A stretch of 45,006 nucleotides of DNA from a virus, in the UHGV virus genome UHGV-0250353; one strand, given 5' to 3'. Under the pieces are notes generated by a model, which searched no databases, was not told the DNA's origin, and saw only the letters and a program-made list of their open reading frames with translations. Position numbers and translations under genes: made by a program. Every line of letters starts with the position of its first letter. The first letter of the stretch is position 1. Shown here piece by piece: positions 1 to 29,830 of this stretch.

Positions 1-786
1 ATTTGGGGTAATAGCGAAAGATGAAGCCAAGCTCCCGTCGTAACTGGATGTTGTCCTCTGCTTGAACCACGCCGAGTTGCCGAAATTATTGCTAAAAGTA
101 AGTATGTTTTCCGCTGCGGTTTCAGGGGGGACGCGCCCGGCGGCAACACCACCGATAAACGTAAGAGGCCATTCATTGGTGGTGGACTGCACAAGATTGC
201 CGTTCCGGTTGATATAATAAACCCGCGGCCCGTCATACACAACGCGGCTATCAAGAGTCGACGCCAGAAGGTTAATCGGTGGGTATCCTGCAGGCCCTTC
301 ATTGCTCCAGATGCGCGGGAACGTCGTTTCGTAGTTAGCATATATTTTCATGAAACTGCCCAGACGATCCCCGTAACAGCCGTACAAATCCGGAAGATTC
401 TTCGTAAGGCATGTATCTTCCTGAATAGCTGTTCTCTCTGCCGTGGCGGTGAACGTAATTACCCAGTTCTTACCGTCGTCGGTGCTATCACTAATCGTCG
501 ATGTGATGAGTATCTGGTGGTCCTCGATGCCCATACCTGTATCATGCGGCATGATAAACGAGGACGCACCGCCGTCGATGTTGTTCAGGAAGCTATAAAA
601 CGCCTGGCGCCCGAGAGAAGACACTACTAGCGTTACGCTAATTGGTACCGGTTCAAAGTACGTGTCTCTCCCCTGGCGGGGTAAGCCGCCCTGAACCTCT
701 GTGCGCCAGATATTACTCCCCCTTGTCTGAGAGTACCCCTTCGACACTATAGGCTTTAAACTTGTTGGAAATCTTAAAGAAGACAT
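1..786 (-). CDS. tail protein, 5' part of a gene that runs off the left edge (262 codons present)
   Basis: ATG at 786 with AGGAG RBS 9 nt upstream; reverse frame open to position 1; directly follows tape measure in tail module; frame is continuous with open reverse frame 44407..45006 if the sequence is circular. Confidence 0.5.
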   Translation of the reverse strand, partial: MSSLRFPTSLKPIVSKGYSQTRGSNIWRTEVQGGLPRQGRDTYFEPVPISVTLVVSSLGRQAFYSFLNNIDGGASSFIMPHDTGMGIEDHQILITSTISDSTDDGKNWVITFTATAERTAIQEDTCLTKNLPDLYGCYGDRLGSFMKIYANYETTFPRIWSNEGPAGYPPINLLASTLDSRVVYDGPRVYYINRNGNLVQSTTNEWPLTFIGGVAAGRVPPETAAENILTFSNNFGNSAWFKQRTTSSYDGSLASSFAITPN

Positions 787-821
787 AGTAAGATACTCCT
801 ATTATTTTAGGAGATACTAAC

Positions 822-1472
822 ATGATACCCACAGAAAAAGTAGCTAAGAGTATGTGGCTGCGCGCGAATTATCCCGCGAACAAAAGCAGCAAAACTAGGC
901 GTGCAACTATATGCGATTTTGGCATAAATGATGCCGATTATGTGGTTAGTCCTAAGATAAACGGCAACCGTGAGCCGTGTCCTGCGTACGCTACGTGGCG
1001 AGGGATGATCCAACGTTGCATAGACGTCGAGTATAAAAACAAAAGACCTGCATACAAGGATGTAACTGTGTGGCATGGGTGGCAAAGGTTTATGTCCTTC
1101 CGTAGATGGTGGCTTTGTAATTACGTAGAAGGATGGGAACTAGATAAGGACTTATTCTCTGGTATTAATAAGATATACAGCCCCACCACTTGCATTTTTA
1201 TTCCGCAATGGTTGAATGTTTTTCTACTGGAAAGGAAAAATAGTGGGTCACCTACAGGTGTTTTTTATGAAGAATCAAGAGGTAAATTTAAAGCCTCAGT
1301 GAAATATGAGAAAAAAACTATTAATCTAGGACGTTTTGAAACTCAGGAAGAAGCGCTAGATGCCTACATCGCTGAAAAGATAAGGATAGCAGAATCAAGA
1401 AGATGCGAGATAGAGGCGATAAGAGAAGGTATGTTCGCCCGCGTTATCGCCTTGATAAAAGAGGGGCGTTAG
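822..1472 (+). CDS. AP2-domain putative homing endonuclease-like protein
   Basis: ORF track 216 aa; GGAG RBS before ATG 822; AP2-like segment GVFYEESRGKFKASV...LGRFETQEEALDAY; opposite strand to flanking tail genes. Confidence 0.5.
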   Translation: MIPTEKVAKSMWLRANYPANKSSKTRRATICDFGINDADYVVSPKINGNREPCPAYATWRGMIQRCIDVEYKNKRPAYKDVTVWHGWQRFMSFRRWWLCNYVEGWELDKDLFSGINKIYSPTTCIFIPQWLNVFLLERKNSGSPTGVFYEESRGKFKASVKYEKKTINLGRFETQEEALDAYIAEKIRIAESRRCEIEAIREGMFARVIALIKEGR

Positions 1473-1481
1473 CCCCTACCT

Positions 1482-3791: not shown

Positions 3792-4170
3792 CTTCTCTGC
3801 CCTCAAATATTCCGTCTAAGCCCATGATAACCTCGGCTTCGAACAAACTTATGCCGTAACCGGCGACATCACGAAACGCTACCAAATCTTGCCATTTGAG
3901 CGCATCGCGCGGGATTATAACGATAGTATCATCTGTTTCGCGCTGTAGGAATTTAATGGCACGGTATTTCTCGAACACGTCGATAAGAGAAACGGGGCAT
4001 TCTGGCCCCGTCGCTTCTTTCATCTGCGGTTCTTTAATCACACCCATTGCGATCAAAGCTGCTTGATGCCCCGCCGCGATGTCGTCGAATTGCTTACGTT
4101 TCTGGCGGTCGACAAAGCACCATTGCGCAAATTCATACAGCGCTTTTACTTTTCCGAGAGTTTCTCGCGG
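3784..4170 (-). CDS. tail assembly chaperone, -1 frame extension (GT-like fusion partner)
   Basis: reverse frame -1 relative to 4146..4562 is open from 4170 to stop 3784..3786; no ATG of its own (track start is TTG 4056); overlaps GGAAAAG at the last codons of upstream ORF. Confidence 0.4.
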   Translation of the reverse strand, partial: PRETLGKVKALYEFAQWCFVDRQKRKQFDDIAAGHQAALIAMGVIKEPQMKEATGPECPVSLIDVFEKYRAIKFLQRETDDTIVIIPRDALKWQDLVAFRDVAGYGISLFEAEVIMGLDGIFEGREDG

Positions 4171-4562
4171 CTATCGGTGTGGTGTTTAACTACGGCTTCT
4201 GCCAGTCCGCTGTACTGGTCTAACAGGTTAGCCAGCGCCTCTTTGCTGAACGGCTCGTCGAATGACCAACCGGTGACGATGTCGACAGCGAGCTGCTTGT
4301 TCAGGTCCATCACCCGCCAGCCCTTCTCATCGTTATAGCGCGCCCAGTTATTCAGCGCCTCGCACTCTTTATCTAATGGCGCAAGTTCTTCCGTAAGGCG
4401 TCGAATTGCCGTTGTGTAGGCGCGGCCTGCACGAACACCCGCATCACAATCGGGGCCAATGACCTGCAGCCATTCGCCGGAGTCTTTACCGCTCGGCAGG
4501 AGGATAGGCATTTTAGTACCAGTAGCGTGGCGGTCGGCAAAATAAAAATCAGAAAGTTTCAT
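4146..4562 (-). CDS. tail assembly chaperone (G-like)
   Basis: 138 aa ORF, ATG 4562 with AAGGA RBS; position between major tail protein region and tape measure; followed by -1 frame ORF. Confidence 0.55.
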   Translation of the reverse strand: MKLSDFYFADRHATGTKMPILLPSGKDSGEWLQVIGPDCDAGVRAGRAYTTAIRRLTEELAPLDKECEALNNWARYNDEKGWRVMDLNKQLAVDIVTGWSFDEPFSKEALANLLDQYSGLAEAVVKHHTDSREKLSEK

Positions 4563-4669
4563 TCTTTGATCCTTTGGTTAAGAGGTTACAGGTTAAGGTT
4601 GACGCGCCAGACGGGAACCACCCGCTTTTCGTGTGCGACACTAGGCGCAAACTTATTCTAGCACACTAC

Positions 4670-4698
4670 TTGCACACCCCAATATAATAGGGTACTAT
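4670..4698 (+). promoter_or_regulatory. sigma70-like promoter TTGCAC-N17-TACTAT with palindromic operator TAATAGggtaCTATTC (4685..4700)
   Basis: hexamers and spacing read directly; same architecture as minus-strand promoters at 24746..24774 and 26253..26281. Confidence 0.5.
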
Positions 4699-4728
4699 TC
4701 ACCTACACCAACAATGGAGGGATTTAAA

Positions 4729-4920
4729 ATGTCAAGTTTACCAGTTTCCTTAATTCTGTTTGCACTTCTCGCTTATTTCGCGCCTTTCCTGGTTGCGTAC
4801 TTCCGTAATCATAAAGCGAAGTTGGCAATATTCATGGCTAACCTGTTTCTTGGCTGGGTTCTGCTGCCGTGGGTATTTATTTTAATATGGGCTTGCAACT
4901 CGAACGTGAAAGAGAAGTAG
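4729..4920 (+). CDS. small two-TM membrane protein, superinfection-immunity (Imm)-like
   Basis: GGAGGG RBS then ATG 4729; two hydrophobic helices; FRNHKAKLAIFMANLFLGW...WVFILIWA resembles Imm-type small membrane proteins (from memory, not searched). Confidence 0.45.
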   Translation: MSSLPVSLILFALLAYFAPFLVAYFRNHKAKLAIFMANLFLGWVLLPWVFILIWACNSNVKEK

Positions 4921-4958
4921 GCTACTATAAGACAAATCCTAAACACGAGGAAGTAAGC

Positions 4959-6089
4959 ATGGCCCATAAGAAAATAACCGACGAACAGTTACAGGAAGAA
5001 TTGAACGCCGGAATGAAGAATGCAGACATCGCCCGTAAATACGGCATCTCAGACCGCGTAATTCGTATCCGTAAAGCGAAGCTGGCTAAGAAAGGCGTAG
5101 GCCACGGGCGTGACGTTAGTCACCTTGTCCCGGACGGCTACAAAATTAAAGGGACCTCGTCACTGGTGGACGAGTTCGGCAACACTAAACTTCAATGGGT
5201 TAAGACCGACACCGATGCCGAACGTCAGGTCGAGTTGATGAAAGCCGTAATCGAAGGCATGAAGTCGGAGATTACTCCAGTTGCACCAGTTAAAGCCGTT
5301 CGCGCCAAACGTGACGATAAACTACTCAATCTTTACACGGTATCTGATTTCCATCTCGGTATGCTGGCCTGGGCCGACGAGAGCGGCGACGACTGGGATA
5401 TGAAGATTGCGGAAGACCTGTTCTCTCGCTGGTTCGATGCTGCGTTCCAGAAAGCGCCAGATGCAGGAACAGGAGTTATTAACCTGCTTGGCGACCTTGC
5501 GCACTTCGATAGTCTGGATGCCGTTACACCTGCAAGCGGCCATGTTCTTGACGCGGACACGCGCTATCAGAAACTGGTCCGCTACATGATTCGTATGGTT
5601 CGCCGTGTTATTGATATGGCGCTGGTTAAGCATAAAAATGTTCGCTTGCTTATCGTGCAAGGGAACCACGACGAAAGTGGAATGATTTGGTTAGCTGAGA
5701 TGTTCAGTACGCTGTACGACAATGAGCCGCGTGTGTTTGTCGATACTTCACCAGATGTTTACAAGATGGTGCAACACGGCAAAACGACGCTGTTCTTTAC
5801 ACACGGGCATAAATGCCGGTTTGAGGTTGTCGAACCAATTATGATAGCTAAGTTCAGAAAAGCATTTGGAGAAAGCGAGTACAGTTACGCGCATGTAGGG
5901 CATCTCCACCATCAAAAGATTGTAGAAAGTAGGAATATGGTAGTGGAGCAACATCGCACTCTCGCGGCGAAAGATGCATATGCTTCCCGCGGCGGGTGGA
6001 TGTCTAAGAGGTCCGCTAATGTCATAACCTATAGTTCAGAGTTCGGGGAAGTAGGTAGGCTTTCAATCTCACCGGAGATGCTAAGATGA
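4959..6089 (+). CDS. HTH domain fused to calcineurin-like metallophosphoesterase
   Basis: GAGGAAG RBS then ATG 4959; motifs DFHLG, GDLAHFD, GNHDES, THGH, GHLHH in canonical order; N-terminal ADIARKYGISDRVIRIRKAK HTH-like. Confidence 0.7.
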   Translation: MAHKKITDEQLQEELNAGMKNADIARKYGISDRVIRIRKAKLAKKGVGHGRDVSHLVPDGYKIKGTSSLVDEFGNTKLQWVKTDTDAERQVELMKAVIEGMKSEITPVAPVKAVRAKRDDKLLNLYTVSDFHLGMLAWADESGDDWDMKIAEDLFSRWFDAAFQKAPDAGTGVINLLGDLAHFDSLDAVTPASGHVLDADTRYQKLVRYMIRMVRRVIDMALVKHKNVRLLIVQGNHDESGMIWLAEMFSTLYDNEPRVFVDTSPDVYKMVQHGKTTLFFTHGHKCRFEVVEPIMIAKFRKAFGESEYSYAHVGHLHHQKIVESRNMVVEQHRTLAAKDAYASRGGWMSKRSANVITYSSEFGEVGRLSISPEMLR

Positions 6090-6556
6090 AGTACCTTGAT
6101 GTTTCAAAACAATTTAAATACTGCCCTGATACGGGGCAGGTTACCAGGATATCTACTGGTGCTGAGGTTGGTACGGTTGGTGTAAGAGGATATCTGTGCT
6201 GCGGTATGGGTGGTAAAACAGTATATGTCCACCGCGTAGCATGGTGTCTTTATAATAAATGTGACTTAGACAGGAAAACACAAATAGACCACATAAACCA
6301 TAACAGGCTAGACAATAGAATAGAAAATCTACGCGCCACCGACAATACAGGGAACAGTAAAAATAAAACTATGAGAAAGATAAATAAATCCGGGGCTACA
6401 GGTGTAAGTTTCCACAAAGCCGCGGGTAAGTGGCGCGCGTTTATAAAAGTTAACTACAAACAAGTGCATTTAGGGCTTTACGACGATTTTGATGTAGCGG
6501 TTGCCGCGCGTAAAGCCGCTGAGAGTAAATACGGTTTTCATGAAAACCATGAGTAG
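6086..6556 (+). CDS. HNH homing endonuclease with AP2-like domain
   Basis: HRVAW...QIDHINHNRLDNRIENLR HNH motif; GVSFHKAAGKWRAFI AP2-like; ATGA overlap with upstream gene. Confidence 0.75.
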   Translation: MKYLDVSKQFKYCPDTGQVTRISTGAEVGTVGVRGYLCCGMGGKTVYVHRVAWCLYNKCDLDRKTQIDHINHNRLDNRIENLRATDNTGNSKNKTMRKINKSGATGVSFHKAAGKWRAFIKVNYKQVHLGLYDDFDVAVAARKAAESKYGFHENHE

Positions 6557-6567
6557 GAGAGCTATTT

Positions 6568-6798
6568 ATGACTTCAAAATATAACCGCACAATGACAAAT
6601 ACCCACGGCAGCACTATGACAGTAGACGTTTATGATGTGCTGCGGGCCTTCGACATCCGCGACCCAGCACTGCAACACGCTTTGAAGAAATTATTGTGCA
6701 TGGGCTTGCGTGGACACAAAGACACCGGGACGGACTTAGCGGAAGCAATTGAAAGTCTGGAGAAGTTACGAGAGTACCGGAGTAATATTGATGAGTGA
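6568..6798 (+). CDS. hypothetical protein
   Basis: ORF track 76 aa, RBS GGAG upstream, inside island operon. Confidence 0.5.
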   Translation: MTSKYNRTMTNTHGSTMTVDVYDVLRAFDIRDPALQHALKKLLCMGLRGHKDTGTDLAEAIESLEKLREYRSNIDE

Positions 6799-6967
6799 AA
6801 ATATTATGAAAACGATATATGTAATCCGTGTATACGACGAAGAATGGGACGAGTGGGTTGATATTTACGCTGTAGGTAGTAAGGAAGAGGCCTCTAAAGA
6901 GATGGCAGAACGGAGTGACCGAGGTCAGTTAACTAACTTCTACGAAATGCCATTCAAAAGTGAGTAA
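6791..6967 (+). CDS. hypothetical acidic small protein
   Basis: in-frame ATG 6791 overlapping stop of upstream gene; ORF track frame 6749..6967. Confidence 0.45.
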   Translation: MSENIMKTIYVIRVYDEEWDEWVDIYAVGSKEEASKEMAERSDRGQLTNFYEMPFKSE

Positions 6968-6970
6968 GAA

Positions 6971-6996
6971 AAGGCCCCGAAAGGGGCCTTAGTTTT
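6971..6996. terminator. bidirectional intrinsic terminator AAGGCCCC-GAAA-GGGGCCTT + TTTT
   Basis: 8-bp GC stem, tetraloop, T-run on plus and A-run upstream; sits between convergent genes. Confidence 0.6.
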
Positions 6997-8167
6997 ATGC
7001 GTAGGTGATACGCTGGATAACAATAGACGACTGGTACTGATTGCCGGTAGCCTGGCCTTCGATGGACTGAGTGATTGACTCTGGTCCGCCAATCTCTGGC
7101 GTAACCGCCGTAAGTTCTGCGCGTTTCAGGCTGAAAGACATAGCCCCGTTTACCCCCGCCAGAATAGAGTTAATCTCTACCTGCTGTTCGTTGATAAACT
7201 TCTGAATCATCGCCATGTCGTACAGCTTACCGGAGATAGAGAAGGTGTTAGCCGCGCGACCACGTTCCACGAACGCAACGCTACTGTTGCCGAGTTCGAA
7301 CTGCGCAGAAGCACCGTTGTCGTTTGTGATGGTCAGAGTATCGCAACGCAACGGCGTAGAACCGTCGAACACGGACACATCTACGGATGAGAACGGCTCA
7401 TCGGTAAACGTCACCTGAGAGAAATCAGAACCTGCTGGCGGTGCAGAAAGAATCTCCTGACTTAGACCGATGAACGGGAAGCTGCCTGTCACCATCGCGT
7501 TTACGGCCTGTTCAATGGTGAATCCGGAGATTTCCACGCCTTTGGTCAACATGTACGCGTCCGGGTTCCCGCACTGTCCTTTGAACCATGTCAGGATGGA
7601 GAACGTCTTACATGCGTTACTGGTTTCCAGTTTGTCGCCGGTTTTAGCGTCGGTGGTTACAGTCTCTGCTGTCAGCGTGTGCTGAATGCCCGCACCCGTA
7701 ACTACAAGAGCAGAAACCGCGGTCACGATAAACGGTTTTGCGTTGTCGCCGGTTAAGTCGGTGAACGCAATCAGGTCGCCAACTTCTACACCGTCAGTAA
7801 TGAAGCTACCGGCAGCGCGGGTGAATGTTTTACCTGCTGGGGCGACCGTAATTTCAGCACCCGTAATCTCCACCCCATCCTGCCACGTAGAAGTCATCGC
7901 GCCCGCGAGGAAATCATCCTGGCTACGCGAGCTAAGTTCGATGGCGTACTCCCCGCTAACCTGCTTATTACCAGTGCGGATGGATGTAGTTTCACGGCTG
8001 CCGTCGAGTTCGTTGGAAGTCAGCGCATCGCGGGTTACGGCTGGAACGCCGCCCGTGTTACGCAACGGCGACCAGACCGGGTTAGTCGGTGTTACGCCCG
8101 GGGTATTTTCCACCACATAGAATTGCGCGGTATTCGCGCCCTTAAAAGGAGTTGTAGCCATATTCAC
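6995..8167 (-). CDS. major tail protein (putative)
   Basis: 390 aa Thr/Ser/Gly-rich structural-type protein; last large gene before chaperones/tape measure in transcription order. Confidence 0.5.
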   Translation of the reverse strand: MNMATTPFKGANTAQFYVVENTPGVTPTNPVWSPLRNTGGVPAVTRDALTSNELDGSRETTSIRTGNKQVSGEYAIELSSRSQDDFLAGAMTSTWQDGVEITGAEITVAPAGKTFTRAAGSFITDGVEVGDLIAFTDLTGDNAKPFIVTAVSALVVTGAGIQHTLTAETVTTDAKTGDKLETSNACKTFSILTWFKGQCGNPDAYMLTKGVEISGFTIEQAVNAMVTGSFPFIGLSQEILSAPPAGSDFSQVTFTDEPFSSVDVSVFDGSTPLRCDTLTITNDNGASAQFELGNSSVAFVERGRAANTFSISGKLYDMAMIQKFINEQQVEINSILAGVNGAMSFSLKRAELTAVTPEIGGPESITQSIEGQATGNQYQSSIVIQRITYA

Positions 8168-8580
8168 AGCCTCTTGGTGAATGCAATAAAGTTAATTGAC
8201 AATGGTCGTTTGGCCCATCCGTTTTCTACAATCAGCGGCCCCAGGCTAACCGATTGAACCTCGGCGCAGATGTCGTTACGTGAAAATGACTTACCTGCCT
8301 TAAACGCCGTGTTAAGTAAGTCTGCCATTTTATTGATTGGCGCGCTACCTTTCACCGATGCGTAGTTAATGTCCACCTGATAAATACCAGAGCGTTGTTC
8401 TGTGAAGAACAAATCCGCCTGTTCTGTATCCGCAAGTAACATGTAACTCGCCAGATACGGCGTATCGGTTGATGTCGGCGCGTCGATGTTTTCAAGTGCT
8501 ACCTTGATGCCGTTGGCGGTTCCGAAGGCTACCAGCGGCACATCAAACGCTTTTGTTAAGTCCTCAAAGTAGCCCATCAT
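8164..8580 (-). CDS. tail/neck structural protein (putative tail terminator or completion protein)
   Basis: 138 aa ORF translationally coupled in structural operon. Confidence 0.5.
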   Translation of the reverse strand: MMGYFEDLTKAFDVPLVAFGTANGIKVALENIDAPTSTDTPYLASYMLLADTEQADLFFTEQRSGIYQVDINYASVKGSAPINKMADLLNTAFKAGKSFSRNDICAEVQSVSLGPLIVENGWAKRPLSINFIAFTKRL

Positions 8581-8975
8581 TTCACCTTGTTGGCTTCTTC
8601 GTTAATGAGTTGCTGGAATCGGGACACATTTATCCTGACCATGCCTTGTGGGGCCTGTTTCGACCAATGGCCGTACTCCAACCGTTGCGCATACGGCAGA
8701 TTATTTGTCAGCGTGAACTCGTGCCAGTCTGTAGCTTTCAGAACGAAACTCGTAGCGTTTCCGGTTGCCGTGTTTCCTGATTTATCCGTAGCGTCTGTAA
8801 TTCCGGAAGCGGGGGTACCGCCAGACGCCATCCAGTTCATACGAAAGCGGCCTGTATCTACCGGACTCGCCTTTATGATAGCGGAAAACAACTTGACAGA
8901 CACCTGACGCATCACCTTCTCAGGATTCTTCTTCGCCTTTTCCACGAACTTAGAGACATCAAGCGCGAAACTCAT
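8577..8975 (-). CDS. neck/tail completion protein (putative)
   Basis: 132 aa ORF, overlaps neighbours by 4 nt. Confidence 0.5.
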   Translation of the reverse strand: MSFALDVSKFVEKAKKNPEKVMRQVSVKLFSAIIKASPVDTGRFRMNWMASGGTPASGITDATDKSGNTATGNATSFVLKATDWHEFTLTNNLPYAQRLEYGHWSKQAPQGMVRINVSRFQQLINEEANKVK

Positions 8976-9331
8976 TTTCTCACCTGAATAAAATACGCCA
9001 CGACATCATCGTTAACCATCTTCTTCTCGATACCTACGACAGACCATTGCTCGCCGCCGGATTGCACCTTGTCTTCCATTTTCGGGACGACACTGCAATC
9101 CGCTTTAACAATCATGTCGCCCGCCTGAATCGTCGTACCGTTCACCAGTCCTGCGTTAACAGGAACCGGAACAGCTTTCAACGGCAGCACTTCATCCGCG
9201 GACCGGACATACTCACCGAGAACTTCATCCCACACTTTCGAGCCAGCGCGAACAAGAGATACCGTGCTACCGAATTTGGTTAGCAGGCGTGTACCGACGC
9301 CTTGCATACGTTTACTGAAAGCGGTGCTCAT
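8972..9331 (-). CDS. head-tail adaptor-like protein (putative)
   Basis: ATG 9331 with AGAGGTG RBS preferred over upstream ATG 9412 of ORF track. Confidence 0.5.
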   Translation of the reverse strand: MSTAFSKRMQGVGTRLLTKFGSTVSLVRAGSKVWDEVLGEYVRSADEVLPLKAVPVPVNAGLVNGTTIQAGDMIVKADCSVVPKMEDKVQSGGEQWSVVGIEKKMVNDDVVAYFIQVRK

Positions 9332-9425
9332 TTTAGCACCTCTTGCAGCGTCAAAAGAACACCGTAACTGTGCAAGACTGCTGCGGTAAGAAAACCAAAA
9401 ACTACACCACATGTGAACTTATTCA

Positions 9426-10040
9426 TCAGGCGGCCTCCAGTCTCGAGATAACCAGTAATGCGGATGGTGCTGTTCCCCATGCGGTTACGGTAGCCGCTTG
9501 TGGATATACGCCGCCGAAGTTGCTTCCGGCGCTATCCCGCATAATCTGAACGGCAAACGTCTGGCCTGCGGTTGTGTTAATAACGACGCGAGATTCAATC
9601 GGGATTGTAGTATCAGCACTTACCAGTTTAGTAGCTGCTGGCGAGCCGTACTGTGCGCCGTTAAGAAGAGTGCGCGATAACAGAATAGACGTCCCGCTAG
9701 CACCGGAGCGCCCTGCCTGTAACTTGATGCGAACGGCGTAGTTACCCGCAATGTTGAACGTAACCAGTCCCGCAGCATTAATCATTACCGGGTCTGAGGC
9801 GCTACCCTGCGCGGGACCGAAAGTTAACTGCAATGCCGTATCTACCGCGGTAGGCGCTTGTGTTACGGTAGACGCGGCACGGAGAACTTCAACCTCTTTA
9901 ACACCGGGAGTGGCGTAAATAGGTGAGTCCGCCATCTGTGTCATTACTTCGCGTAACTTCTCGGGTGTGATAAGCCCGGTGGTGTTATCGGGAAGGTTCG
10001 CTCCGATAAGGGCGAACATCTCTGTTTTAGTCTTCGCCAT
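9426..10040 (-). CDS. virion structural protein (function unknown)
   Basis: 204 aa ORF in head-tail joining region. Confidence 0.5.
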   Translation of the reverse strand: MAKTKTEMFALIGANLPDNTTGLITPEKLREVMTQMADSPIYATPGVKEVEVLRAASTVTQAPTAVDTALQLTFGPAQGSASDPVMINAAGLVTFNIAGNYAVRIKLQAGRSGASGTSILLSRTLLNGAQYGSPAATKLVSADTTIPIESRVVINTTAGQTFAVQIMRDSAGSNFGGVYPQAATVTAWGTAPSALLVISRLEAA

Positions 10041-10042
10041 TT

Positions 10043-10555
10043 TTAGCCCCGGTACACGTTAAAAGAGAAGCCATTGTTAAGACCACCACACAGTAACGGG
10101 CGCAAGGCGTCGTCGGCGGCAGTAATAGCGGTAGTAGCCCCACTGCTGCCGTTGTTGAAGTATGTCACGGTAACTGCACCTTCCACGCGCTCAGTCTGCA
10201 CGGAGCGACCGTCCGAGTTAGCACGCACTTCTGTGCCCGCCCCATACGTGGCGGACGCGATTACCTGCGCAAGAATTACCTGTTTCGGAATGGCATTGTT
10301 AGCTACCGGGAATCCGTTTAACGTTACCCCCGTGCGAGGGTACGCCAGAGGCTGTTCGGCGGATACGCGGCGACCGCACATCTGCGGTTCTGCAAGCCCT
10401 ACGTAAGTAGCGCCGTTGCGCAGAGCTACTTCGGCGGCGGTATCGTCTTCCGGTAGCTCAAGGCCATAATTAGCCGCTAACGCGCGGGCGTCAACCAGAC
10501 TAATGTAACTGTCGGCGTTAGGTACTATCGACCCATCTTCCACGATTAGCGGCAT
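10043..10555 (-). CDS. head-tail connector-like protein (DnaT-like N-terminus)
   Basis: N-terminus MPLIVEDGSIVPNADSYISLVDARALAANYG typical of a phage structural family (from memory). Confidence 0.45.
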   Translation of the reverse strand: MPLIVEDGSIVPNADSYISLVDARALAANYGLELPEDDTAAEVALRNGATYVGLAEPQMCGRRVSAEQPLAYPRTGVTLNGFPVANNAIPKQVILAQVIASATYGAGTEVRANSDGRSVQTERVEGAVTVTYFNNGSSGATTAITAADDALRPLLCGGLNNGFSFNVYRG

Positions 10556-10558
10556 AAA

Positions 10559-10738
10559 TTATTCCTCTGACTTACGGCGACGACGCTTAGTACCACCGCC
10601 GTTGTTGTGCGCTTCTTCGTTGTCCGGTTGGGTTGCAACCAGTTCATCAGCCTCTACCACACCGCGAACGGGCATCACCTGACCGTCAACAACGTCAACG
10701 TGGGTGTACTTTTCGCGGATTACATAATTATCTGCCAT
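10559..10738 (-). CDS. small hypothetical protein (59 aa, basic C-terminus)
   Basis: ATG 10738 with AAGGAAAGG RBS; not in ORF track (below size cut-off); hand translation. Confidence 0.4.
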   Translation of the reverse strand: MADNYVIREKYTHVDVVDGQVMPVRGVVEADELVATQPDNEEAHNNGGGTKRRRRKSEE

Positions 10739-10774
10739 GACCTTTCCTTATTACGGCCCCGAAGGGCCGTTGTA

Positions 10775-11125
10775 TTAAGACACAGTTGCTACAGTGCTGC
10801 TGGAGATAATATTACCATACACATCGTGAACAACCACTTTATACGTGCCTGAATCTGCGGTAGTAGTGGACGCCTTCGCATAGGTAGCAGCGTTTGCCCC
10901 GGCGATCGCGTTGTTGTTCTTGTACCACTGGTAGGAATATGGCTCCAGACCGCCGGTTACCGCGACGGTCAGGGTCATAGTCTGCCCCGCCGTAACTGCG
11001 GTGGTAGCCGCGAGCGCGGTAGAAAAAGATGCTGGTGAGATATTCGCCATGTCGATTTCAACCTGACCGTCGGCAGGAGAATCGTCAGAAACACCGGTAA
11101 TACGACGTTTAATTACATCAACCAT
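10775..11125 (-). CDS. Ig-like domain protein (possible capsid decoration)
   Basis: TLTVAVTGGLEPYSYQWYKNNNAI...SGTYKVVVHDVYGN Ig-like pattern; AAAGGAG RBS. Confidence 0.5.
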   Translation of the reverse strand: MVDVIKRRITGVSDDSPADGQVEIDMANISPASFSTALAATTAVTAGQTMTLTVAVTGGLEPYSYQWYKNNNAIAGANAATYAKASTTTADSGTYKVVVHDVYGNIISSSTVATVS

Positions 11126-11137
11126 TTTTAAGCTCCT

Positions 11138-11437
11138 TTAGCTTACAGTTCCTGCGTTTTTAAGCGCGGTTAACAGGTTCGCTACGGTAGTGCGCAGCGC
11201 GGTAACATCGGTTCGGAGTTTATTGTACTCCGCTACAAGCGCATCAAACTCTGCCTTAGTCGGGTCTGCGGCGGCCTGAACTCCGGCAGCGGCAGTAATG
11301 GCCGCGGGTGCAGCTACAGTAGCTGACTTTTTAACCCCACCAACTACGCTGGTAGTAGCAGGCGTCACTGGGATATCTAGGTCGCTAAAGTCAACGTTCT
11401 GAAGGCTGCGCGGTAAGCCTTTTCCGGTCTTAGCCAT
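11138..11437 (-). CDS. hypothetical structural protein
   Basis: 99 aa, AAGAGGT RBS, directly downstream of capsid gene. Confidence 0.5.
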   Translation of the reverse strand: MAKTGKGLPRSLQNVDFSDLDIPVTPATTSVVGGVKKSATVAAPAAITAAAGVQAAADPTKAEFDALVAEYNKLRTDVTALRTTVANLLTALKNAGTVS

Positions 11438-11444
11438 AATTTAC

Positions 11445-11480
11445 CTCTTAGTAAATGAAAAGAGGGACCGAAGTCCCTCT
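11445..11480 (-). terminator. hairpin AGAGGGAC-CGAA-GTCCCTCT, attenuator after capsid gene
   Basis: 8-bp stem read directly; U-rich tract on minus RNA after the stem. Confidence 0.45.
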
Positions 11481-11496
11481 CGATTATAGCTTAACC

Positions 11497-12546
11497 TTAA
11501 GCACCGACACCAGTTACCAGGAAGGCAATCGGTACATGCTTACGCTCAACAACGCGGTTCCAGTTGGAGGCGTTCGCCAGGTCCTGCCAGGAAGCAGAGC
11601 GTGCGACAGTCTCGGTGCCGTTGCCGGTGATTACCGCGCTGGTGAAGCTGTAGCCCAGTGGGTGCAGCAACCAGGTCTTACGGGTCCACAGGGTTTCAAC
11701 GCCGCCGCCGTTACCGCGAGACGCTTCACGCTCGTATTCCAGCGGGTTTGACGGATTACCTTCACCGTAACCGATAGCGCCGTTACCGAAGATGGTGGAG
11801 ATGAACTTACGGCTAGGACCAGTACCGACTACGGTCATGCTGTCGTCAACAATCACGCGGTAGCCCTGGTAGGTGGCGAACATGGTGTTGTTGTCAGCGT
11901 CTTTGATGAAGTCAATAAGCTGCTGCTTACGGGCCTGCGCATAAACGAAACTGTGCATCGCGATAGCACCCAGTACTTCACCACCGTTACCCATCAGAGC
12001 ATCGCCCATGGTCTGGGTAGCGTCGATGAATGCGCCCGCGTCGAAGCCCAGAGTCGCGGACACGTCTACTACCATGTCGTTCTGCTCGTGGTAAGCATCG
12101 GTCGCGGCAACGTTGTCGTTGTACAGGCCGAGCGCAGTGGCAATCAGACGGCGTTGTGCCTGACGCTGCCAGAAGTTATCCAGACGGGACGCTACAGATT
12201 GCAGCGGGTTCTGGCTGGTCAGTTCGACAGTCAGGTCAGCCTGGCCAAAACCTTCGTTCAGGTACGCAACGCGCGCCATCATCTCACCGGTCTGCACGTT
12301 ACGCGGGGTTGCGATGTCCTGGTATACGTCGTTCGAGTAGTTTGGCTCGATAGAGGTATCAATCGCTTTCCAGAAAGGAATATTAGCGACGTTGGACGGG
12401 CCACGAGCAATCTCGGCAGCGTACGGGGTCGGGGTAAGGATACCGGACTGGAAGAACGCGGTTTTTTCTACCGGGTCTTCTGTCATGTAAGACGCCAGGA
12501 CCGGGATGTTGCCAGTTACGATATCGCCGATAGTGGTAATTGCCAT
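11497..12546 (-). CDS. major capsid protein
   Basis: 349 aa, GAGGA RBS, preceded by scaffold-like gene and followed by attenuator hairpin. Confidence 0.75.
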   Translation of the reverse strand: MAITTIGDIVTGNIPVLASYMTEDPVEKTAFFQSGILTPTPYAAEIARGPSNVANIPFWKAIDTSIEPNYSNDVYQDIATPRNVQTGEMMARVAYLNEGFGQADLTVELTSQNPLQSVASRLDNFWQRQAQRRLIATALGLYNDNVAATDAYHEQNDMVVDVSATLGFDAGAFIDATQTMGDALMGNGGEVLGAIAMHSFVYAQARKQQLIDFIKDADNNTMFATYQGYRVIVDDSMTVVGTGPSRKFISTIFGNGAIGYGEGNPSNPLEYEREASRGNGGGVETLWTRKTWLLHPLGYSFTSAVITGNGTETVARSASWQDLANASNWNRVVERKHVPIAFLVTGVGA

Positions 12547-12548
12547 TA

Positions 12549-13250
12549 TTATTTCCTCAGGGCTTTAAGTTGCCGTTCAAATTCGGCAGGGTTCGATTTA
12601 TACAGAGCTAAACGCTCCGCTTCACTCATGTCTTTAAACGCTGGTGCGGCCCCGCCGCCTTTGCTACCGGAAGCCCCGCCGCCGGAAGCTGCATTTGCTT
12701 TAATCAAATGCGAAAACGCTTTGTGTTCACGCAGGTATTTGCGGAACTGTTCCGGGTCAGTCGTGATTACGTTGCCGTCTGCTCCGACAAACTTAGTAAC
12801 CACGTCATCGCCTTCAAACTCGGTCTTAACGAACGGAGCCAGGATGTCCACTGCTTCCGGGGTGATAAAGTCACCCGCGAAAGAGCCTAACACCGCTTTA
12901 CGTTCGCTGCCGAGGATACGCTCCGCCATTCTGGAGATGCGGCCGTCTTTCTCGGCTAACACCGGGTCATACTGGCTACGAATCGTCTTTTCAAACTCGT
13001 CCATCTTACCAGCGGCTTTTAACGCCTCCTGGTGTGCGCGCTGCCGTTCTTCTTCGGCCTCTTTTGCTTTGCGAGCGGCTTCTTTCTTCTCCGCCAGCAA
13101 TGCTTCCTGATTAGCCTTAAGCCCGGCTACTTCTTTCTCAATCAGCGCCTGAACTTCTTCAGCGGTGAACATTTTCGGCGCATCACCGCCGCCAGATTTA
13201 TCTTCTGTCCCAGCTTCTTCCTGGAACGGATAACGTAAAAAACGATTCAT
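12549..13250 (-). CDS. scaffolding protein
   Basis: ATG 13250 (MNRFLRY...) with AGGGGA RBS; charged alpha-helical composition; immediately upstream of capsid gene. Confidence 0.6.
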   Translation of the reverse strand: MNRFLRYPFQEEAGTEDKSGGGDAPKMFTAEEVQALIEKEVAGLKANQEALLAEKKEAARKAKEAEEERQRAHQEALKAAGKMDEFEKTIRSQYDPVLAEKDGRISRMAERILGSERKAVLGSFAGDFITPEAVDILAPFVKTEFEGDDVVTKFVGADGNVITTDPEQFRKYLREHKAFSHLIKANAASGGGASGSKGGGAAPAFKDMSEAERLALYKSNPAEFERQLKALRK

Positions 13251-13332
13251 AGTCAGTATGTCCCCTGGACGTTGGAATCCGGGCCACCCGGATTTACATG
13301 TCAAGAATAAATTATTCCAACATGCAAGGCAA

Positions 13333-13596
13333 CTATTCCAGAATATTCCTCACGTAATCCTGCAACATGAACACTTTCAGCCTCAGTTGCCGTACACATT
13401 CAGCGTTCTGAACGTCGATAGCCAAATCCTCGTCAGCATCACTACTTGGCGGTGCCAGCTTGCACGGCGGCTGCATCATTGTCGTATCCGGGGATGGAAT
13501 TGGCGTTTGCGACGGCGCGGGACTTGAGTTGCACGCGCTCAGGGTCAAAAGTGCACACGCTGCGGCTAGGCGTTTTAATGTACTTAACGACTTCAC
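13333..13596 (-). CDS. o-spanin (Rz1-like outer membrane lipoprotein)
   Basis: GTG start with GAGGTG RBS; signal peptide plus lipobox LTLSAC; Pro-rich mature part; overlaps 3' end of Rz-like gene in another frame. Confidence 0.6.
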   Translation of the reverse strand: MKSLSTLKRLAAACALLTLSACNSSPAPSQTPIPSPDTTMMQPPCKLAPPSSDADEDLAIDVQNAECVRQLRLKVFMLQDYVRNILE

Positions 13597-13828
13597 GGGT
13601 AATCACCTCTGATTTCGTCTTGCCTTCGTTGTCGGCGGCTGCGGCCTTTGACTCATCCTGCTGCTGCCGTTGTGTCTTCTTAGCTAACTCAGCCTTCGCT
13701 TTTTGGGTTTGTTCGGTAACGAGGTCAAGCCGTCCCGCATCCCAGCCGCGGTTGTATTGGTACCCCCCGTACAGCCATACCGTAAGCAAGCCTGCCGCCG
13801 TTAGTGTTGCTGTGTTGCTTAGATTCAT
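13442..13828 (-). CDS. i-spanin (Rz-like)
   Basis: N-terminal TM helix then charged coiled-coil region; contains overlapping lipoprotein gene. Confidence 0.65.
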   Translation of the reverse strand: MNLSNTATLTAAGLLTVWLYGGYQYNRGWDAGRLDLVTEQTQKAKAELAKKTQRQQQDESKAAAADNEGKTKSEVITREVVKYIKTPSRSVCTFDPERVQLKSRAVANANSIPGYDNDAAAVQAGTAK

Positions 13829-13852
13829 GTTTCCCCTTTCTCGATAAGTAAA

Positions 13853-13872
13853 GCCCCGCCTTAAAGCGGGGC
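13853..13872 (-). terminator. hairpin GCCCCGC-CUUAAA-GCGGGGC just upstream of Rz RBS
   Basis: 7-bp GC stem read directly; weak U tract; may be attenuator or RNA stabiliser. Confidence 0.35.
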
Positions 13873-13935
13873 GCTAGTCCTTATCATTTAAACATAGAAA
13901 CGGCGTAATCTCAGTAAACCAGTTACTCTTTACAC

Positions 13936-14071
13936 AAGCAAAAGAGTATGGCCCTTCCGAACGCGTCAGCGTAACTACACTCAGGACTTACGTCCCGCTC
14001 CGTTACCTGCCCGCGCCGCGGTCGCTCGTTCATACTTCACAAGCTCAGGTGGAGCTTATCATATTTTTAGT
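13936..14071 (-). repeat. conserved noncoding element, copy A (candidate structured RNA / leader)
   Basis: about 88 percent identical by hand alignment to 26454..26590; compensatory hairpin 13974..13985; no conserved ORF. Confidence 0.6.
14043..14071 (-). promoter_or_regulatory. candidate extended -10 promoter TTGACT-N17-TGaTAAGCT inside copy A
   Basis: hexamers read on minus strand; conserved in copy B. Confidence 0.4.
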
Positions 14072-14144
14072 GAAAAGTCAACTATTCGAATAGTTTATTC
14101 CAACATTTACAATTGATTGGAATAACTGGAATAATTACGAGCCA

Positions 14145-14165
14145 TAAAAAGCCCCTTTCGGGGCT
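14145..14165 (-). terminator. intrinsic terminator AGCCCC-UUUC-GGGGCU with U5 on minus RNA
   Basis: stem and A-run (plus) read directly, immediately after stop of 14171..14632. Confidence 0.55.
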
Positions 14166-14170
14166 TCAGT

Positions 14171-14632
14171 TTATTCTGGCTTAGTCACCTTCGCCGCTTT
14201 GCTTACACCCTCTACACCATCGGCATCGGTAACTTTAACGAAGTATTCACCGACCACATTAACCGTCAGAGACAGAGCTTCTTCTGGGGCGTTGACTACT
14301 TCCTTACCGTCTTTGTACCAGGTCAGCACATACGGCGCTTTGCCCGCCTTAACTTCGACAGTGATAGTTGCGCTGCCGTCTGCCAGTTCCGCATCCTGCG
14401 GTTGCACAGAGAAATACACGTCGCCAGCGTCCGCCAGATACGGAATCTCATAAAGCATACCCGCCGCGGGCAGCGCGATGCCTGTTTTATCCGCAAACGG
14501 CATATCGTCTACCGGTGTACCGAGTACACTTTCGTCTTCAATAAACACCACGTTCTCACCAGAGCCGGATACACGGGCGTACTGGACTACGCGGCGCGCG
14601 GGTACATCGGTTACTTTGAAAAAGCCCATCAT
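14171..14632 (-). CDS. Ig-like domain protein
   Basis: TITVEVKAGKAPYVLTWYKDGKEV...YFVKVTDADG Ig-like pattern. Confidence 0.5.
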   Translation of the reverse strand: MMGFFKVTDVPARRVVQYARVSGSGENVVFIEDESVLGTPVDDMPFADKTGIALPAAGMLYEIPYLADAGDVYFSVQPQDAELADGSATITVEVKAGKAPYVLTWYKDGKEVVNAPEEALSLTVNVVGEYFVKVTDADGVEGVSKAAKVTKPE

Positions 14633-26033: not shown

Positions 26034-26227
26034 TTCACCCCTTTGAATTTAAAATTGTTGCCGATGAGTTCTAAATACTCCGCGCTTACAGTTGCATGGC
26101 CGCCAGTAAATACATTGCGAAGTTTACAAATGGCAGCACTGCCTCTGTTGTTGGTGGAAAATACGGAGTACAAACATCCCGACTTTTTACTACGGACCAA
26201 CTGACCCTTCTTAAACATAACCCTCAC
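26030..26227 (-). CDS. hypothetical protein, first gene of leftward early operon
   Basis: ATG 26227 with GAGGGG RBS about 19 nt downstream of promoter 26253..26281. Confidence 0.5.
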   Translation of the reverse strand: MRVMFKKGQLVRSKKSGCLYSVFSTNNRGSAAICKLRNVFTGGHATVSAEYLELIGNNFKFKGVK

Positions 26228-26252
26228 CCCTCTGTCTCGTTTCGATAAGTGA

Positions 26253-26281
26253 ATAGTATCCTATTATGTTTGGGTGTGCAA
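26253..26281 (-). promoter_or_regulatory. sigma70-like promoter TTGCAC-N17-TACTAT with operator GAATAGtatcCTATTA (26251..26266)
   Basis: hexamers, spacing and palindrome read directly. Confidence 0.5.
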
Positions 26282-26323
26282 GAGAATAGTTACGTTGCCG
26301 TTGTGATTCTTTCGTTTCTTAAA

Positions 26324-26379
26324 AGAGTACGCAACGCAGGGGGTGGGCATTAGCCCACCCCAGCGGAGTGAAGTACTCT
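26324..26379. other. nested inverted repeat AGAGTAC...GGGTGGGC-atta-GCCCACCC...GTACTCT (structured element in control region)
   Basis: outer 7-bp and inner 8-bp complementary arms read directly; no adjacent U-run. Confidence 0.4.
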
Positions 26380-26453
26380 CTACCTTGCTCACGGCAACTA
26401 TAGAAACTTTTAATTATCAGTGACTTGGGTATTTAGGCGGGATTAACAATAGA

Positions 26454-26590
26454 CTATGGCCCTTCCGAATGCGGGCAGCGACACTACACTCAGTGCTAAC
26501 GCACCGCTCCGTTCTCCTGCCGCACCGCGGTCGCTTGTTCATACTTCACAAGCTCAGGTGGAGCTTAGCATATTTTTAGTGAAAAGTCAA
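26454..26590 (-). repeat. conserved noncoding element, copy B
   Basis: paralogue of 13936..14071; compensatory hairpin 26493..26504. Confidence 0.6.
26562..26590 (-). promoter_or_regulatory. candidate extended -10 promoter TTGACT-N17-TGcTAAGCT inside copy B
   Basis: same motif and position as in copy A. Confidence 0.4.
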
Positions 26591-26685
26591 TATCAGTAGC
26601 ATCTTTTGTATCTTAGTAACTTTGTTGTTGCTTTTTGCTTGAAGTACCATTATCTTAGGTACTTCAACAACTGAGGGGTATTTAG

Positions 26686-26829
26686 ATGAAGATTTGCCAG
26701 ATGTGTAGGAAAGAAAAAGAAGAAGGTGCATTCCTTAAACGTTATGACAGAAAAGGAACGCGTAGTTATTGCCGTGAATGTTTCAATGCATACCGCAAAC
26801 AATTAAGAGAGGCTAAGAAGAATGCATAA
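26686..26829 (+). CDS. small zinc-ribbon protein (47 aa, CxxC...CxxC)
   Basis: GAGGGG RBS then ATG 26686; hand translation MKICQMCRKEKEE...YCRECFNAY; first gene of rightward arm. Confidence 0.45.
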   Translation: MKICQMCRKEKEEGAFLKRYDRKGTRSYCRECFNAYRKQLREAKKNA

Positions 26830-27271
26830 ATACTTAGATGAGTTTCTGAAATCGTTAAACCTGATATTAGCCGAGAACCCGGGAGCGTCACTGCATGACA
26901 TTAAATCGGCAATAGAACTCGACGGGCCAATTAGTGCCGTGATTTCATTGCTTGGGTATTTCGGGGAGATAGACCGTGTTTATGATGGTAGTAAATATCT
27001 GTATTGGGTTAAAGGCGGTAAGCCATCCAATGTTATATCAGTTCCTTTTCCCGAGAAGGGCCAACTTACGGAGTTACAAAAACTAGTCTATGGAAAATGT
27101 CTTGAACAGCAAGGCCGACGCATCACCCCTAGTGCGGTATACGCCCTGGTAAAAGATGACGTCACCAATCTTGGTGCTGTCTGTACCGCTATGCGCGGAC
27201 TTTCTAAAAAAGGTTTGTTGATTAAGGTGTGTGATGGCGTGTATGCTCTTGCAGTACCAAACGCCAAATAA
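26822..27271 (+). CDS. hypothetical protein
   Basis: ORF track 149 aa. Confidence 0.55.
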   Translation: MHKYLDEFLKSLNLILAENPGASLHDIKSAIELDGPISAVISLLGYFGEIDRVYDGSKYLYWVKGGKPSNVISVPFPEKGQLTELQKLVYGKCLEQQGRRITPSAVYALVKDDVTNLGAVCTAMRGLSKKGLLIKVCDGVYALAVPNAK

Positions 27272-29606: not shown

Positions 29607-29625
29607 AAGGGGCGTTAAGCCCCTT
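29607..29625 (-). terminator. hairpin AAGGGGC-guuaa-GCCCCUU at 3' end of HTH gene
   Basis: 7-bp stem read directly; U-rich tract on minus RNA; between convergent genes. Confidence 0.45.
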
Positions 29626-29830
29626 CACCCAACGCCAGCCACTTGGCGTCTACTTGCAGCACTTCCGCCAGTTTAAACAGCGTTGCCGGGCGGACGTCCT
29701 GAGTTACCCCGAGTGCAAGCTGGTTAATCGCGCCCTGGGAAACGCCCGCAAGGACCGCCAGACGGCGCTGGGAGATACCGAGTTCTTTACGGCGTTGCTC
29801 TACACGGATGCCTAGTTCAGATGGTTGCAT
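29615..29830 (-). CDS. XRE-family HTH transcriptional regulator (Cro/CI-like, 71 aa)
   Basis: LGISQRRLAVLAGVSQGAINQLALG HTH; AAGGAG RBS; divergent from operator-bearing promoters. Confidence 0.7.
   Translation of the reverse strand: MQPSELGIRVEQRRKELGISQRRLAVLAGVSQGAINQLALGVTQDVRPATLFKLAEVLQVDAKWLALGEGA

Follow-up and report, generated by a model that had tools for sequence, protein, structure and literature searches.

A predicted promoter, a covarying leader RNA and a nested hairpin form a duplicated module in a Kagunavirus genome, next to a candidate operator of the replication arm

To our knowledge, antitermination that relies on RNA only is known in very few systems, i.e., put of phage HK022 and EAR of Bacillus. 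The late unit of phage lambda comprises the promoter PR', the 194-nt 6S leader and the terminator tR', followed by the lysis and structural genes, and is read through after Q modifies RNA polymerase. Lambda Q is discussed in PMC7171158. For HK022, putL and putR have been described as two paralogous two-stem RNAs of ~70 nt located just after the promoters PL and PR, which are structured from position +3 and require no protein (PMC9378689). Here, we compare with these systems the divergent intergenic region at positions 26228-26685 of the viral genome UHGV-0250353, which separates an early-left arm from a rightward replication arm. The whole stretch of 45,006 nt is referred to as the window in the following. 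This genome is nearly complete and belongs to a Kagunavirus (Guernseyvirinae), i.e., to a virulent siphophage of E. coli, the closest record being vB_EcoS_GZMU_E2010 (~95% identity).

Our overall explanation, to which we assign a probability of about 0.5, combines a leader-hairpin gate behind a structured RNA with an operator on the rightward promoter. That is, a promoter P_R would fire rightward into the replication arm, and a promoter P_B would fire leftward. P_B transcripts would start with a folded RNA of ~105 nt and would meet, ~175 nt later, a nested stem-loop that most likely ends or gates transcription before a further promoter (P_L1) and the early-left genes. The promoter-RNA-hairpin module is duplicated ahead of the late genes, where read-through would be required, and it would be most economical if the conserved RNA, alone or together with a phage factor, let RNA polymerase pass the hairpin. 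On the rightward side, a 10-bp operator over the -10 and the start of P_R, acquired along with a gene of the same cassette that probably encodes the protein binding it, would throttle the replication operon. The gate and read-through step of the leftward leader is tentative even if the rest is granted. The repeats, the covariation of the RNA and its strand, the constant position of the hairpin and the joint inheritance of repeat and cassette follow directly from the computations, and promoter activity, termination, read-through and protein binding are what we infer here from comparative sequence analysis.

Taken alone, the two inverted repeats of the region are ordinary regulatory hardware of known kinds (leader hairpin, operator). 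New is the promoter-structured RNA-hairpin module that is duplicated ahead of the early-left and late operons. Phage therapy makes frequent use of this subfamily, with Kagunavirus members widely applied as therapeutic coliphages, and transcription in these phages is essentially unmapped; the map of predicted promoters, operators and terminators provided here would be useful for engineering them.

The predicted distal leftward promoter P_B is located on the minus strand at 26562..26590, with the -35 hexamer TTGACT (26590..26585), a 17-nt spacer and the -10 hexamer TAAGCT (26567..26562). Both hexamers are invariant in 7 aligned copies and in further Kagunavirus regions of the same position; the larger set of P_B copies was retrieved by a pattern that fixes both hexamers and thus provides no independent support for their invariance. 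The fBC-Eco01 annotation lists the P_B homologue among its predicted host promoters, and Jerseyvirus shows TTGACA-17-TAAGTT at this position. P_B is part of a ~140-nt element (26447-26590, copy B) that has a direct copy at 13939-14081 (copy A; 88% identical), where the homology between both copies ends exactly at the -35.

From the predicted +1 of P_B, the element encodes a structured RNA of ~105 nt (26450..26555, minus strand; covariance-model hit of 88 bits) with the four helices P1-P4. Its transcribed part was studied based on 37 distinct versions from GenBank relatives and IMG/VR contigs. P1 (GCUUG/CAAGC) is invariant except for U.G wobbles, and P2 (CCGC-NNN-GCGG) shows a C-G to U-A swap, an extra G-C pair in one lineage and seven loop variants. 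One pair of P3 (GUAAC/GUUAC) is seen as AU, UA and GC, while 5/6 pairs of the 6-bp helix P4 occur in two or three Watson-Crick types. In both RNA copies, the loop of P1 contains TGAAGTAT, which is related to the octamer TGAAGTAC discussed below.

Within the structural alignment, 698/709 cells are paired, and sliding the 3' partner by 1-3 columns reduces the paired share to 30-46%. Since 36 G.U cells are opposed to a single A.C cell, the structure resides on the minus-strand transcript. For 16 representatives, pair counting gives 98.0% paired cells (shuffles: 85.3 +/- 1.2%; 0/500) and a covariation of 0.327 (shuffles: 0.106; 0/500) with both sides changed in 8 pairs, where the alignment was fitted by hand, which biases these pair counts toward the structure. 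The hand-built alignment was used because RNAalifold on a plain MAFFT alignment recovers only P1 and fragments, i.e., the variable helices get misaligned.

Two other readings of the element were rejected. A plus-strand structure of element and hairpin is disfavored by the RNAalifold energy (-17.6 vs. -25.6) as well as by the 36 to 1 excess of G.U over A.C. A coding function was considered for a 41-aa minus-strand open reading frame (ORF), a 47-aa plus-strand ORF and the coding sequences annotated in fBC-Eco01 and Snoke, but neither the phiEc4-type B copies nor the A copy of one relative (L037) retain the ATG, close relatives differ by 1-nt indels, and the substitutions within helices are compensatory. 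The small hypothetical ORFs that several GenBank records place within the ~105-nt RNAs, i.e., published 'hypothetical protein' calls, are hereby corrected.

The covariance model has exactly two hits in the window (26555..26450 and 14046..13942), and the RNA is restricted to Kagunavirus-type contigs. No match is found in the Jerseyvirus divergent region. There, phage VSt10 (L070, Salmonella) has a different leftward leader with its own hairpins in place of the Kagunavirus RNA; its promoters are arranged back to back (TTGACA-17-TAAGTT leftward, TTGATT-17-TATACT rightward, 15 bp apart) and are accompanied by a triple-nested hairpin. In the whole window, no Rfam family reaches its gathering score; for the surroundings of both copies, a search at E up to 10 gave chance-level hits only. 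An ARAGORN search for tRNAs gave nothing credible. When 185,579 genomes of bacteria and archaea were scanned with a pattern, 22 matches were obtained vs. ~39 expected by chance (a hand estimate), the one genuine match being a mis-binned kagunavirus contig. The ~105-nt RNA is previously undescribed, supported by covariation and without Rfam family.

When compared with put, there are again two paralogous structured RNAs at or just after promoters that head terminator-containing operons, and the copies differ by compensatory changes. As for putL, the structure would begin at about +3 of the transcript, and by analogy the mechanism would be independent of the terminator sequence. In contrast to put, the Kagunavirus RNA comprises ~105 nt and four helices rather than ~70 nt and two stems, the duplication includes the promoter, and the phage is a virulent siphophage instead of a lambdoid one. 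Homology to put was considered and rejected, i.e., the covariance model has no match in the HK022 genome at E<=10.

Downstream of the RNA, the module features a nested stem-loop (26324..26379, minus strand). Its outer arms AGAGTAC (26324-26330) and GTACTCT (26373-26379) enclose the inner arms GGGGTGGGC (26340-26348) and GCCCACCCC (26353-26361), which form a perfect G/C-rich helix of 9 bp with loop ATTA. The predicted fold has an energy of -36 kcal/mol (z = -6.1 for the minus and -7.6 for the plus strand; 0/200 shuffles as stable). As a chance test, we screened 2000 dinucleotide-preserving shuffles of the 458 nt for perfect inverted repeats with a loop of 3-12 nt. Repeats of at least 10 bp are present in 7/2000 and of at least 9 bp in 19/2000 shuffles. 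Given this rarity, two such repeats in one region are very unlikely by chance, and the initial annotation, which had named the nested repeat together with a second one in front of the first rightward gene, was right in that both are present and non-random.

The lack of an adjacent U-run reported there holds for the plus strand only. On the minus strand, the outer stem leads into GUACUCUUUUAAG, i.e., the RNA continues with about UUU(U)AAG after the outer stem, and more U's are located within the stem. On the leftward transcript, the hairpin starts ~175 nt downstream of the predicted P_B start. P_B, itself a sequence prediction, is upstream of the hairpin in the same orientation, and the promoter is kept in both paralogues and all relatives examined. 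The proposal of a 5' UTR (untranslated region) structure was therefore correct with regard to RNA structure but not in direction, since the hairpin would belong to the leftward leader from P_B inside 'element copy B' rather than to the rightward arm.

A seven-lineage alignment of the region shows near-invariant blocks around the leftward promoter beside the left gene, an invariant 30-nt block (26596-26624) and the well-conserved ~140-nt element. The segment between the conserved blocks is swapped wholesale among lineages, and the nested stem-loop is part of it. In the same slot, ST20 and the Jerseyviruses carry GUAAC-(GGGCAGGC..GCCUGCCC)-UUUA-GUUAC within a further GUGCC/GGCAC stem, and Golestan-type phages a simple 6-7 bp hairpin GGUGCC-UUCG-GGCACC followed by ACGUUCGUUUCGUUUCG. 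Including copy A, four unrelated GC hairpin sequences (from three lineages and copy A) thus occupy one position with the same strand logic, and for 3/4 hairpin types an AU-rich outer stem surrounds the GC inner stem. Inside the hairpin types, compensatory changes are observed (GGC/GCC to GGU/ACC; GCCCCGC/GCGGGGC to GCCCUGC/GCAGGGC), and the hairpin of one relative (L078) has a G.U pair whose counterpart on the opposite strand would be a C.A mismatch. Selection appears to act on the hairpin structure of the leftward strand. Because the relatives and the paralogous copy hold unrelated, mostly nested GC hairpins at the same position, we consider the nested stem-loop most likely to be an RNA element of the leftward leader, i.e., a terminator or attenuator.

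This agrees with intrinsic terminators in that a GC-rich hairpin and a U-rich tract are found on the transcribed strand, with copy A and the ST20/Jerseyvirus type as the clearest cases. At least 5 U within the 8 nt directly after the stem, our criterion for terminators, are present for copy A (UUUACUUA) and for the ST20/Jerseyvirus type (UUUAGUUA). Unlike intrinsic terminators, the window type has its U-run after the weaker outer stem only, and one or two more helices enclose the hairpin. Such an enclosing helix is formed by GUUGCCGU as 5' strand in the RNA (26391..26398, minus strand), whose UGCCGU is kept in all three lineages despite differing flanks, and ACGGCAAC as 3' strand (26294..26301, minus strand), which lies in the invariant block upstream of P_L1. 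This long-range helix, (U)UGCCGU/ACGGCA(A), is predicted around all three hairpin types; its pairs never vary such that no covariation signal is possible. At the DNA level, GTTGCCGT/ACGGCAAC forms an 8-bp inverted repeat (26294-26301, 26391-26398) that brackets the replaceable hairpin segment, with the core TGCCGT/ACGGCA in all lineages. It could represent the closing RNA helix or an exchange boundary of hairpin cassettes. Just upstream of the hairpin, a (CTCA)n microsatellite of ~4-7 units replaces the window sequence in Golestan, RP180, Snoke and KMB36 (L042, L043, L044, L045), and a GTGA repeat is found at this spot in one further sequence (L011).

The second module, module A (13843..14093, minus strand), comprises a palindrome CTATTCGAATAG (14082-93), the predicted promoter P_A (14053-14081), the RNA (14046..13942; covariance-model hit of 94 bits) and a nested hairpin (13885..13843). 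The latter, GAUAAG-(GCCCCGC..GGCGGGGC)-UUUA-CUUAUC, ranks first among the terminator-like sites in 1-14200 and shows the compensatory variant GCCCUGC/GGCAGGGC in one relative (L005). It ends 5 nt before the ribosome-binding site (RBS) of the spanin gene, with the scaffold and capsid genes beyond. The predicted start at ~14046 would thus be followed by a leader of ~200 nt with the hairpin directly before the late genes. Upstream of the module, a strong bidirectional terminator-like hairpin (14148-14166; GAAGCCCCGAAAGGGGCUUUUU on the minus strand) closes the preceding leftward operon. Given this closure and the distance of 5 nt between hairpin and RBS, late transcription must start at P_A and pass the hairpin. 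Terminator-like sites are about twofold enriched in both leftward operons (33 vs. 15.7 and 28 vs. 11.8 expected). In one relative (L010; IMGVR_UViG_3300045988_039442), the A position holds the B-type RNA core of the window, which implies recombination or gene conversion between module copies across phages.

Module A resembles the lambda late unit in its constitutive-looking sigma70 promoter, its untranslated leader of ~200 nt, the hairpin that immediately precedes the first late gene, and the long downstream operon with further terminators. A -10-like TGAGCT at the start site is reminiscent of a sigma-dependent pause element. It differs in that the leader RNA is strongly conserved in structure, which is not required of qut, in that the module also precedes the early-left arm, in that no Q-like protein was recognised among 14 proteins scanned, and in that no Q-binding element was identified. 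Furthermore, both modules and all lineages share one RNA core while the hairpins differ, which argues against a riboswitch-like pairing of core and hairpin and favors a terminator-independent mechanism.

In its strongest form, this would make the ~105-nt RNA a new class of cis-acting processive antiterminator RNA with put-like logic but unrelated sequence and fold, the nested stem-loop being the terminator that is overridden and both long leftward operons being governed in this way. We regard this specific version as possible but rather unlikely; if true, i.e., if the RNA promotes read-through, it would add a further, unrelated example of RNA-only antitermination. The same components would also make up a free-standing small-RNA gene in two copies, whose RNA of ~200-230 nt acts in trans on targets of host or phage and whose hairpin is a plain terminator. 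Both copies have their own promoter, a covarying core and a terminal hairpin, the sequence of which is free to change as expected for a terminator, and lambda PR' yields an analogous short transcript (6S). But the hairpin of copy A, placed 5 nt from the first late RBS behind a closed operon, cannot be an efficient unconditional terminator, which leaves the small-RNA gene an unlikely explanation.

A role of the nested stem-loop as T7-type RNase III processing site of the leftward leader, which would leave a stabilising 3' hairpin and a defined downstream 5' end, appears improbable to us. T7 early RNA is processed at sites with two stems and an internal loop, and the stem-loop likewise has an outer stem of 7-9 bp that is separated from the inner stem of 9 bp by an asymmetric internal loop. 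This nested architecture recurs in copy A and in the ST20/Jerseyvirus type, and the further enclosing helix would extend it to a long interrupted duplex. The Golestan-type hairpin, a simple stem of 6-7 bp closed by UUCG with a U-rich tail, fits a terminator better. RNase III and terminator roles of the hairpin are not mutually exclusive.

With regard to the rightward arm, the initial annotation had found no convincing sigma70 promoter. A candidate, P_R, is located on the plus strand at 26628..26656, with TTGCTT as -35 (26628-33), a 17-nt spacer and TATCTT as -10 (26651-56), and occupies the promoter position of relatives that have different first genes. These relatives, which carry three other first-gene cassettes, show TTG(C/A)TT-17-TATACT with the -35 placed 54-60 nt before the start codon; for P_R the distance to the ATG is 58 nt. 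Over four different cassettes, the general form is TTG(C/A)TT-17-TAT(A/C)(C/T)T. Among sequences that carry the same cassette as the window, L046 and L051 have the -10 variant TATATT, and an alternative TTGCTT further downstream is destroyed in L051, the most divergent one. P_R and P_B are arranged back to back with 37 bp between their -35 hexamers, across the invariant block. Together with P_L1, the region would be a compound control region with three sigma70-type promoters.

P_R overlaps a perfect inverted repeat of 10 bp (26639..26667), i.e., TTGAAGTACC (26639-26648) and GGTACTTCAA (26658-26667) separated by 9 nt. It ends 5 nt before the RBS GAGGGG (26673-26678) of the gene starting with ATG at 26686. 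It had been reported as a 9-bp repeat; the repeat and its distance to the RBS were confirmed, while its length is 10 bp and its spacer 9 nt. The repeat is centred at 26653 inside the predicted -10 such that its arms cover about -25..-16 and -6..+4. In all 7/7 cassette-bearing sequences the arms are invariant. Differences are seen in the spacer (26654 and 26657) and at several positions of the flanks. Phages with other cassettes lack the repeat. The window holds one full copy.

Two cassette genes follow on the plus strand (26686..27271), encoding a 47-aa CxxC...CxxC protein (26686-26829) and a 149-aa protein (26822-27271). The cassette, i.e., repeat plus both genes, is present in 2/50,697 GenBank phage records and in a small family of metagenomic relatives. 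The sequence 26229-26640 aligns at 75-96% with dozens of Kagunavirus records, and this similarity ends at ~26640, exactly at the start of the repeat, which places the recombination boundary inside P_R. The 47-aa protein is a CxxC...CxxC zinc ribbon according to PHROG matches (E 1e-5). For the 149-aa protein, whose family is small and at least 77% identical, neither a family match nor any hit in a sequence search of the PDB was found. The AlphaFold2 model of its C-terminal half shows a helix-helix-helix-strand-strand arrangement with a predicted local distance difference test (pLDDT) score of 70-90, and Foldseek reports partial matches to the winged-helix domains of Fur, Zur, MarR, BlaI and LexA, none with E<=1e-3. 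The model thus hints only weakly at a winged-helix-like C-terminal domain.

Since the repeat is centred on the -10 of P_R, has invariant arms and is inherited along with a gene for a putative winged-helix-like protein, it is probably an operator over P_R. An operator had been among the earlier proposals and is the best-supported reading of this repeat; that a protein of the cassette binds it is only a guess. In common with lambdoid immunity, LexA- and LacI-type operators, a perfect palindrome lies on the -10 and the start and is inherited with the gene of an adjacent putative DNA-binding protein. Unlike in lambdoid immunity regions, there is a single operator instead of a tripartite array, the phage is virulent, and the fold assignment of the candidate binder is weak. 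A co-variation of regulator and operator as a general rule at P_R was rejected given the phages with an alternative helix-turn-helix (HTH) cassette (see below), among which only phiEc4 has an inverted repeat flanking the -35. The octamer TGAAGTAC occurs 7 times in the window (26369, 26640, 26659, 6087, 11973, 35655, 39309; 1.16 expected), three times within the control region, i.e., in both operator arms and in the 3' part of the nested hairpin. As extra half-sites these copies were discarded, since those outside the region are located in coding sequence or at gene starts.

Alternatively, the rightward mRNA could start with the repeat folded into a hairpin that protects the message or controls its translation, with the promoter further upstream. 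In line with this, it folds with -13.3 kcal/mol (z = -5.5; 0/200 shuffles as stable) and ends close to the RBS, and a promoter-like TTCACA-18-CATATT (26545-26574) would put the whole repeat into the transcript. This promoter-like sequence, however, scores 9/12 with an 18-nt spacer, lies inside the element shared by copies A and B, and is weakened to CACATT in ST20-type phages. The homology-supported P_R starts inside the repeat such that only the right arm would be transcribed, and strictly conserved arms without compensatory change fit protein recognition better, although only 7 close relatives are available. We therefore hold an mRNA hairpin for quite improbable.

Of the three earlier proposals for the region, an operator (for the 10-bp repeat) and an RNA structure (for the hairpin) thus find support, while the third, a replication origin, gains nothing specific. 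An origin formed by the region or the repeat, where the winged-helix protein would bind and recruit the helicase-primase while the AT-rich 26565-26640 melts, is very improbable: although transcription-activated origins beside helicase-primase genes exist, the cumulative GC-skew has its minimum at ~26 kb, AT-rich sequence adjoins and the repeat travels with a putative DNA-binding protein gene directly upstream of the helicase-primase gene, the minimum coincides with the switch of coding strand and gene orientation and thus carries no independent information, DnaA boxes are absent from the region, there is one full palindrome and otherwise two-copy short direct repeats rather than a family of at least 3 iterons, the repeat is positioned right over the -10 and the start of a promoter, i.e., in the classic operator position, and an origin must also exist in the relatives, most of which do not have the repeat.

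Besides the hand-fitted alignment and the poor RNAalifold result on the plain one, several points weigh against our overall explanation. First, the window-type hairpin has a poor U-tract, i.e., its inner stem is followed by CUGCGUUG without a U-tract, and UUU(U), or UUUA in two relatives, is found after the outer stem only. Within the window-type lineage, the hairpin is conserved without covariation, and variation does not differ significantly between stems and loops, based on 13 varying columns only. Second, neither Pfam nor PHROGs reveal a known antiterminator family, Q/N-like ones included, for 14 early-left proteins and for those encoded beside the region. Third, P_R matches the consensus at 7/12 positions, which is weak, and was missed by a generic promoter scan. 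The winged-helix assignment depends on a model of low confidence (mean pLDDT 59) and on Foldseek matches above the E-value threshold given above, and among phages with the alternative HTH cassette the promoter spacers differ though their HTH proteins are 89% identical. Finally, our literature search yielded no Guernseyvirinae phage with mapped start sites or terminators and neither Term-seq nor in vitro termination data, the sole transcriptome study found being at gene level.

The third predicted promoter of the region, P_L1, is located on the minus strand at 26252..26281 (-35 TTGCAC 26281..26276, 17-nt spacer, -10 TACTAT 26258..26253) and corresponds to the promoter 26253..26281 already named in the initial annotation. 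It is nearly invariant across 7 aligned relatives and lies 280 bp left of P_B, beside the first leftward gene. A 37-nt copy of P_L1 at 4669-4705 is aimed at downstream genes. The -10 of P_L1 is part of the palindrome AATAG-N4-CTATT (26252-26265). In total, 7 exact copies of these 14 bp are found in the window (4686, 24745, 25061, 26252, 29905, 32650, 36426), every one at a promoter-like site, and two of them belong to the divergent region of an XRE-type repressor gene (29615..29830). The fBC-Eco01 paper calls the motif a 'phage RNA polymerase promoter' (PMC9825357). Since an RNA polymerase gene is missing from the annotation of the relative fFiEco03, AATAG-N4-CTATT is probably the operator of a phage regulator, and we correct the published assignment accordingly. 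The palindrome CTATTCGAATAG of module A (14082-14093) consists of the half-site words of this motif in opposite arrangement. It abuts the -35 of P_A with its centre at about -41.5, i.e., at a class II activator position.

The gene content of both arms was assessed by comparison with the annotated fFiEco03. Leftward from ~26.2 kb, ~25 small early genes are followed by lysis, terminase, portal and head genes, and a second leftward block contains the spanin, scaffold, capsid and tail genes. Judged by homology, the first leftward gene probably starts with ATG at 26218 and not with GTG at 26227. Rightward from 26.7 kb, the two small cassette genes precede a 755-aa helicase-primase (PHROG 3228, E 1e-286), followed by nuclease, DNA polymerase and helicase genes. 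A 6.2-kb contig labelled as part of a Bacillota metagenome-assembled genome (L098, JAEWLW010000073.1) is collinear with window positions 26640-22388 and thus represents a kagunavirus fragment that was mis-binned in a bacterial genome assembly.

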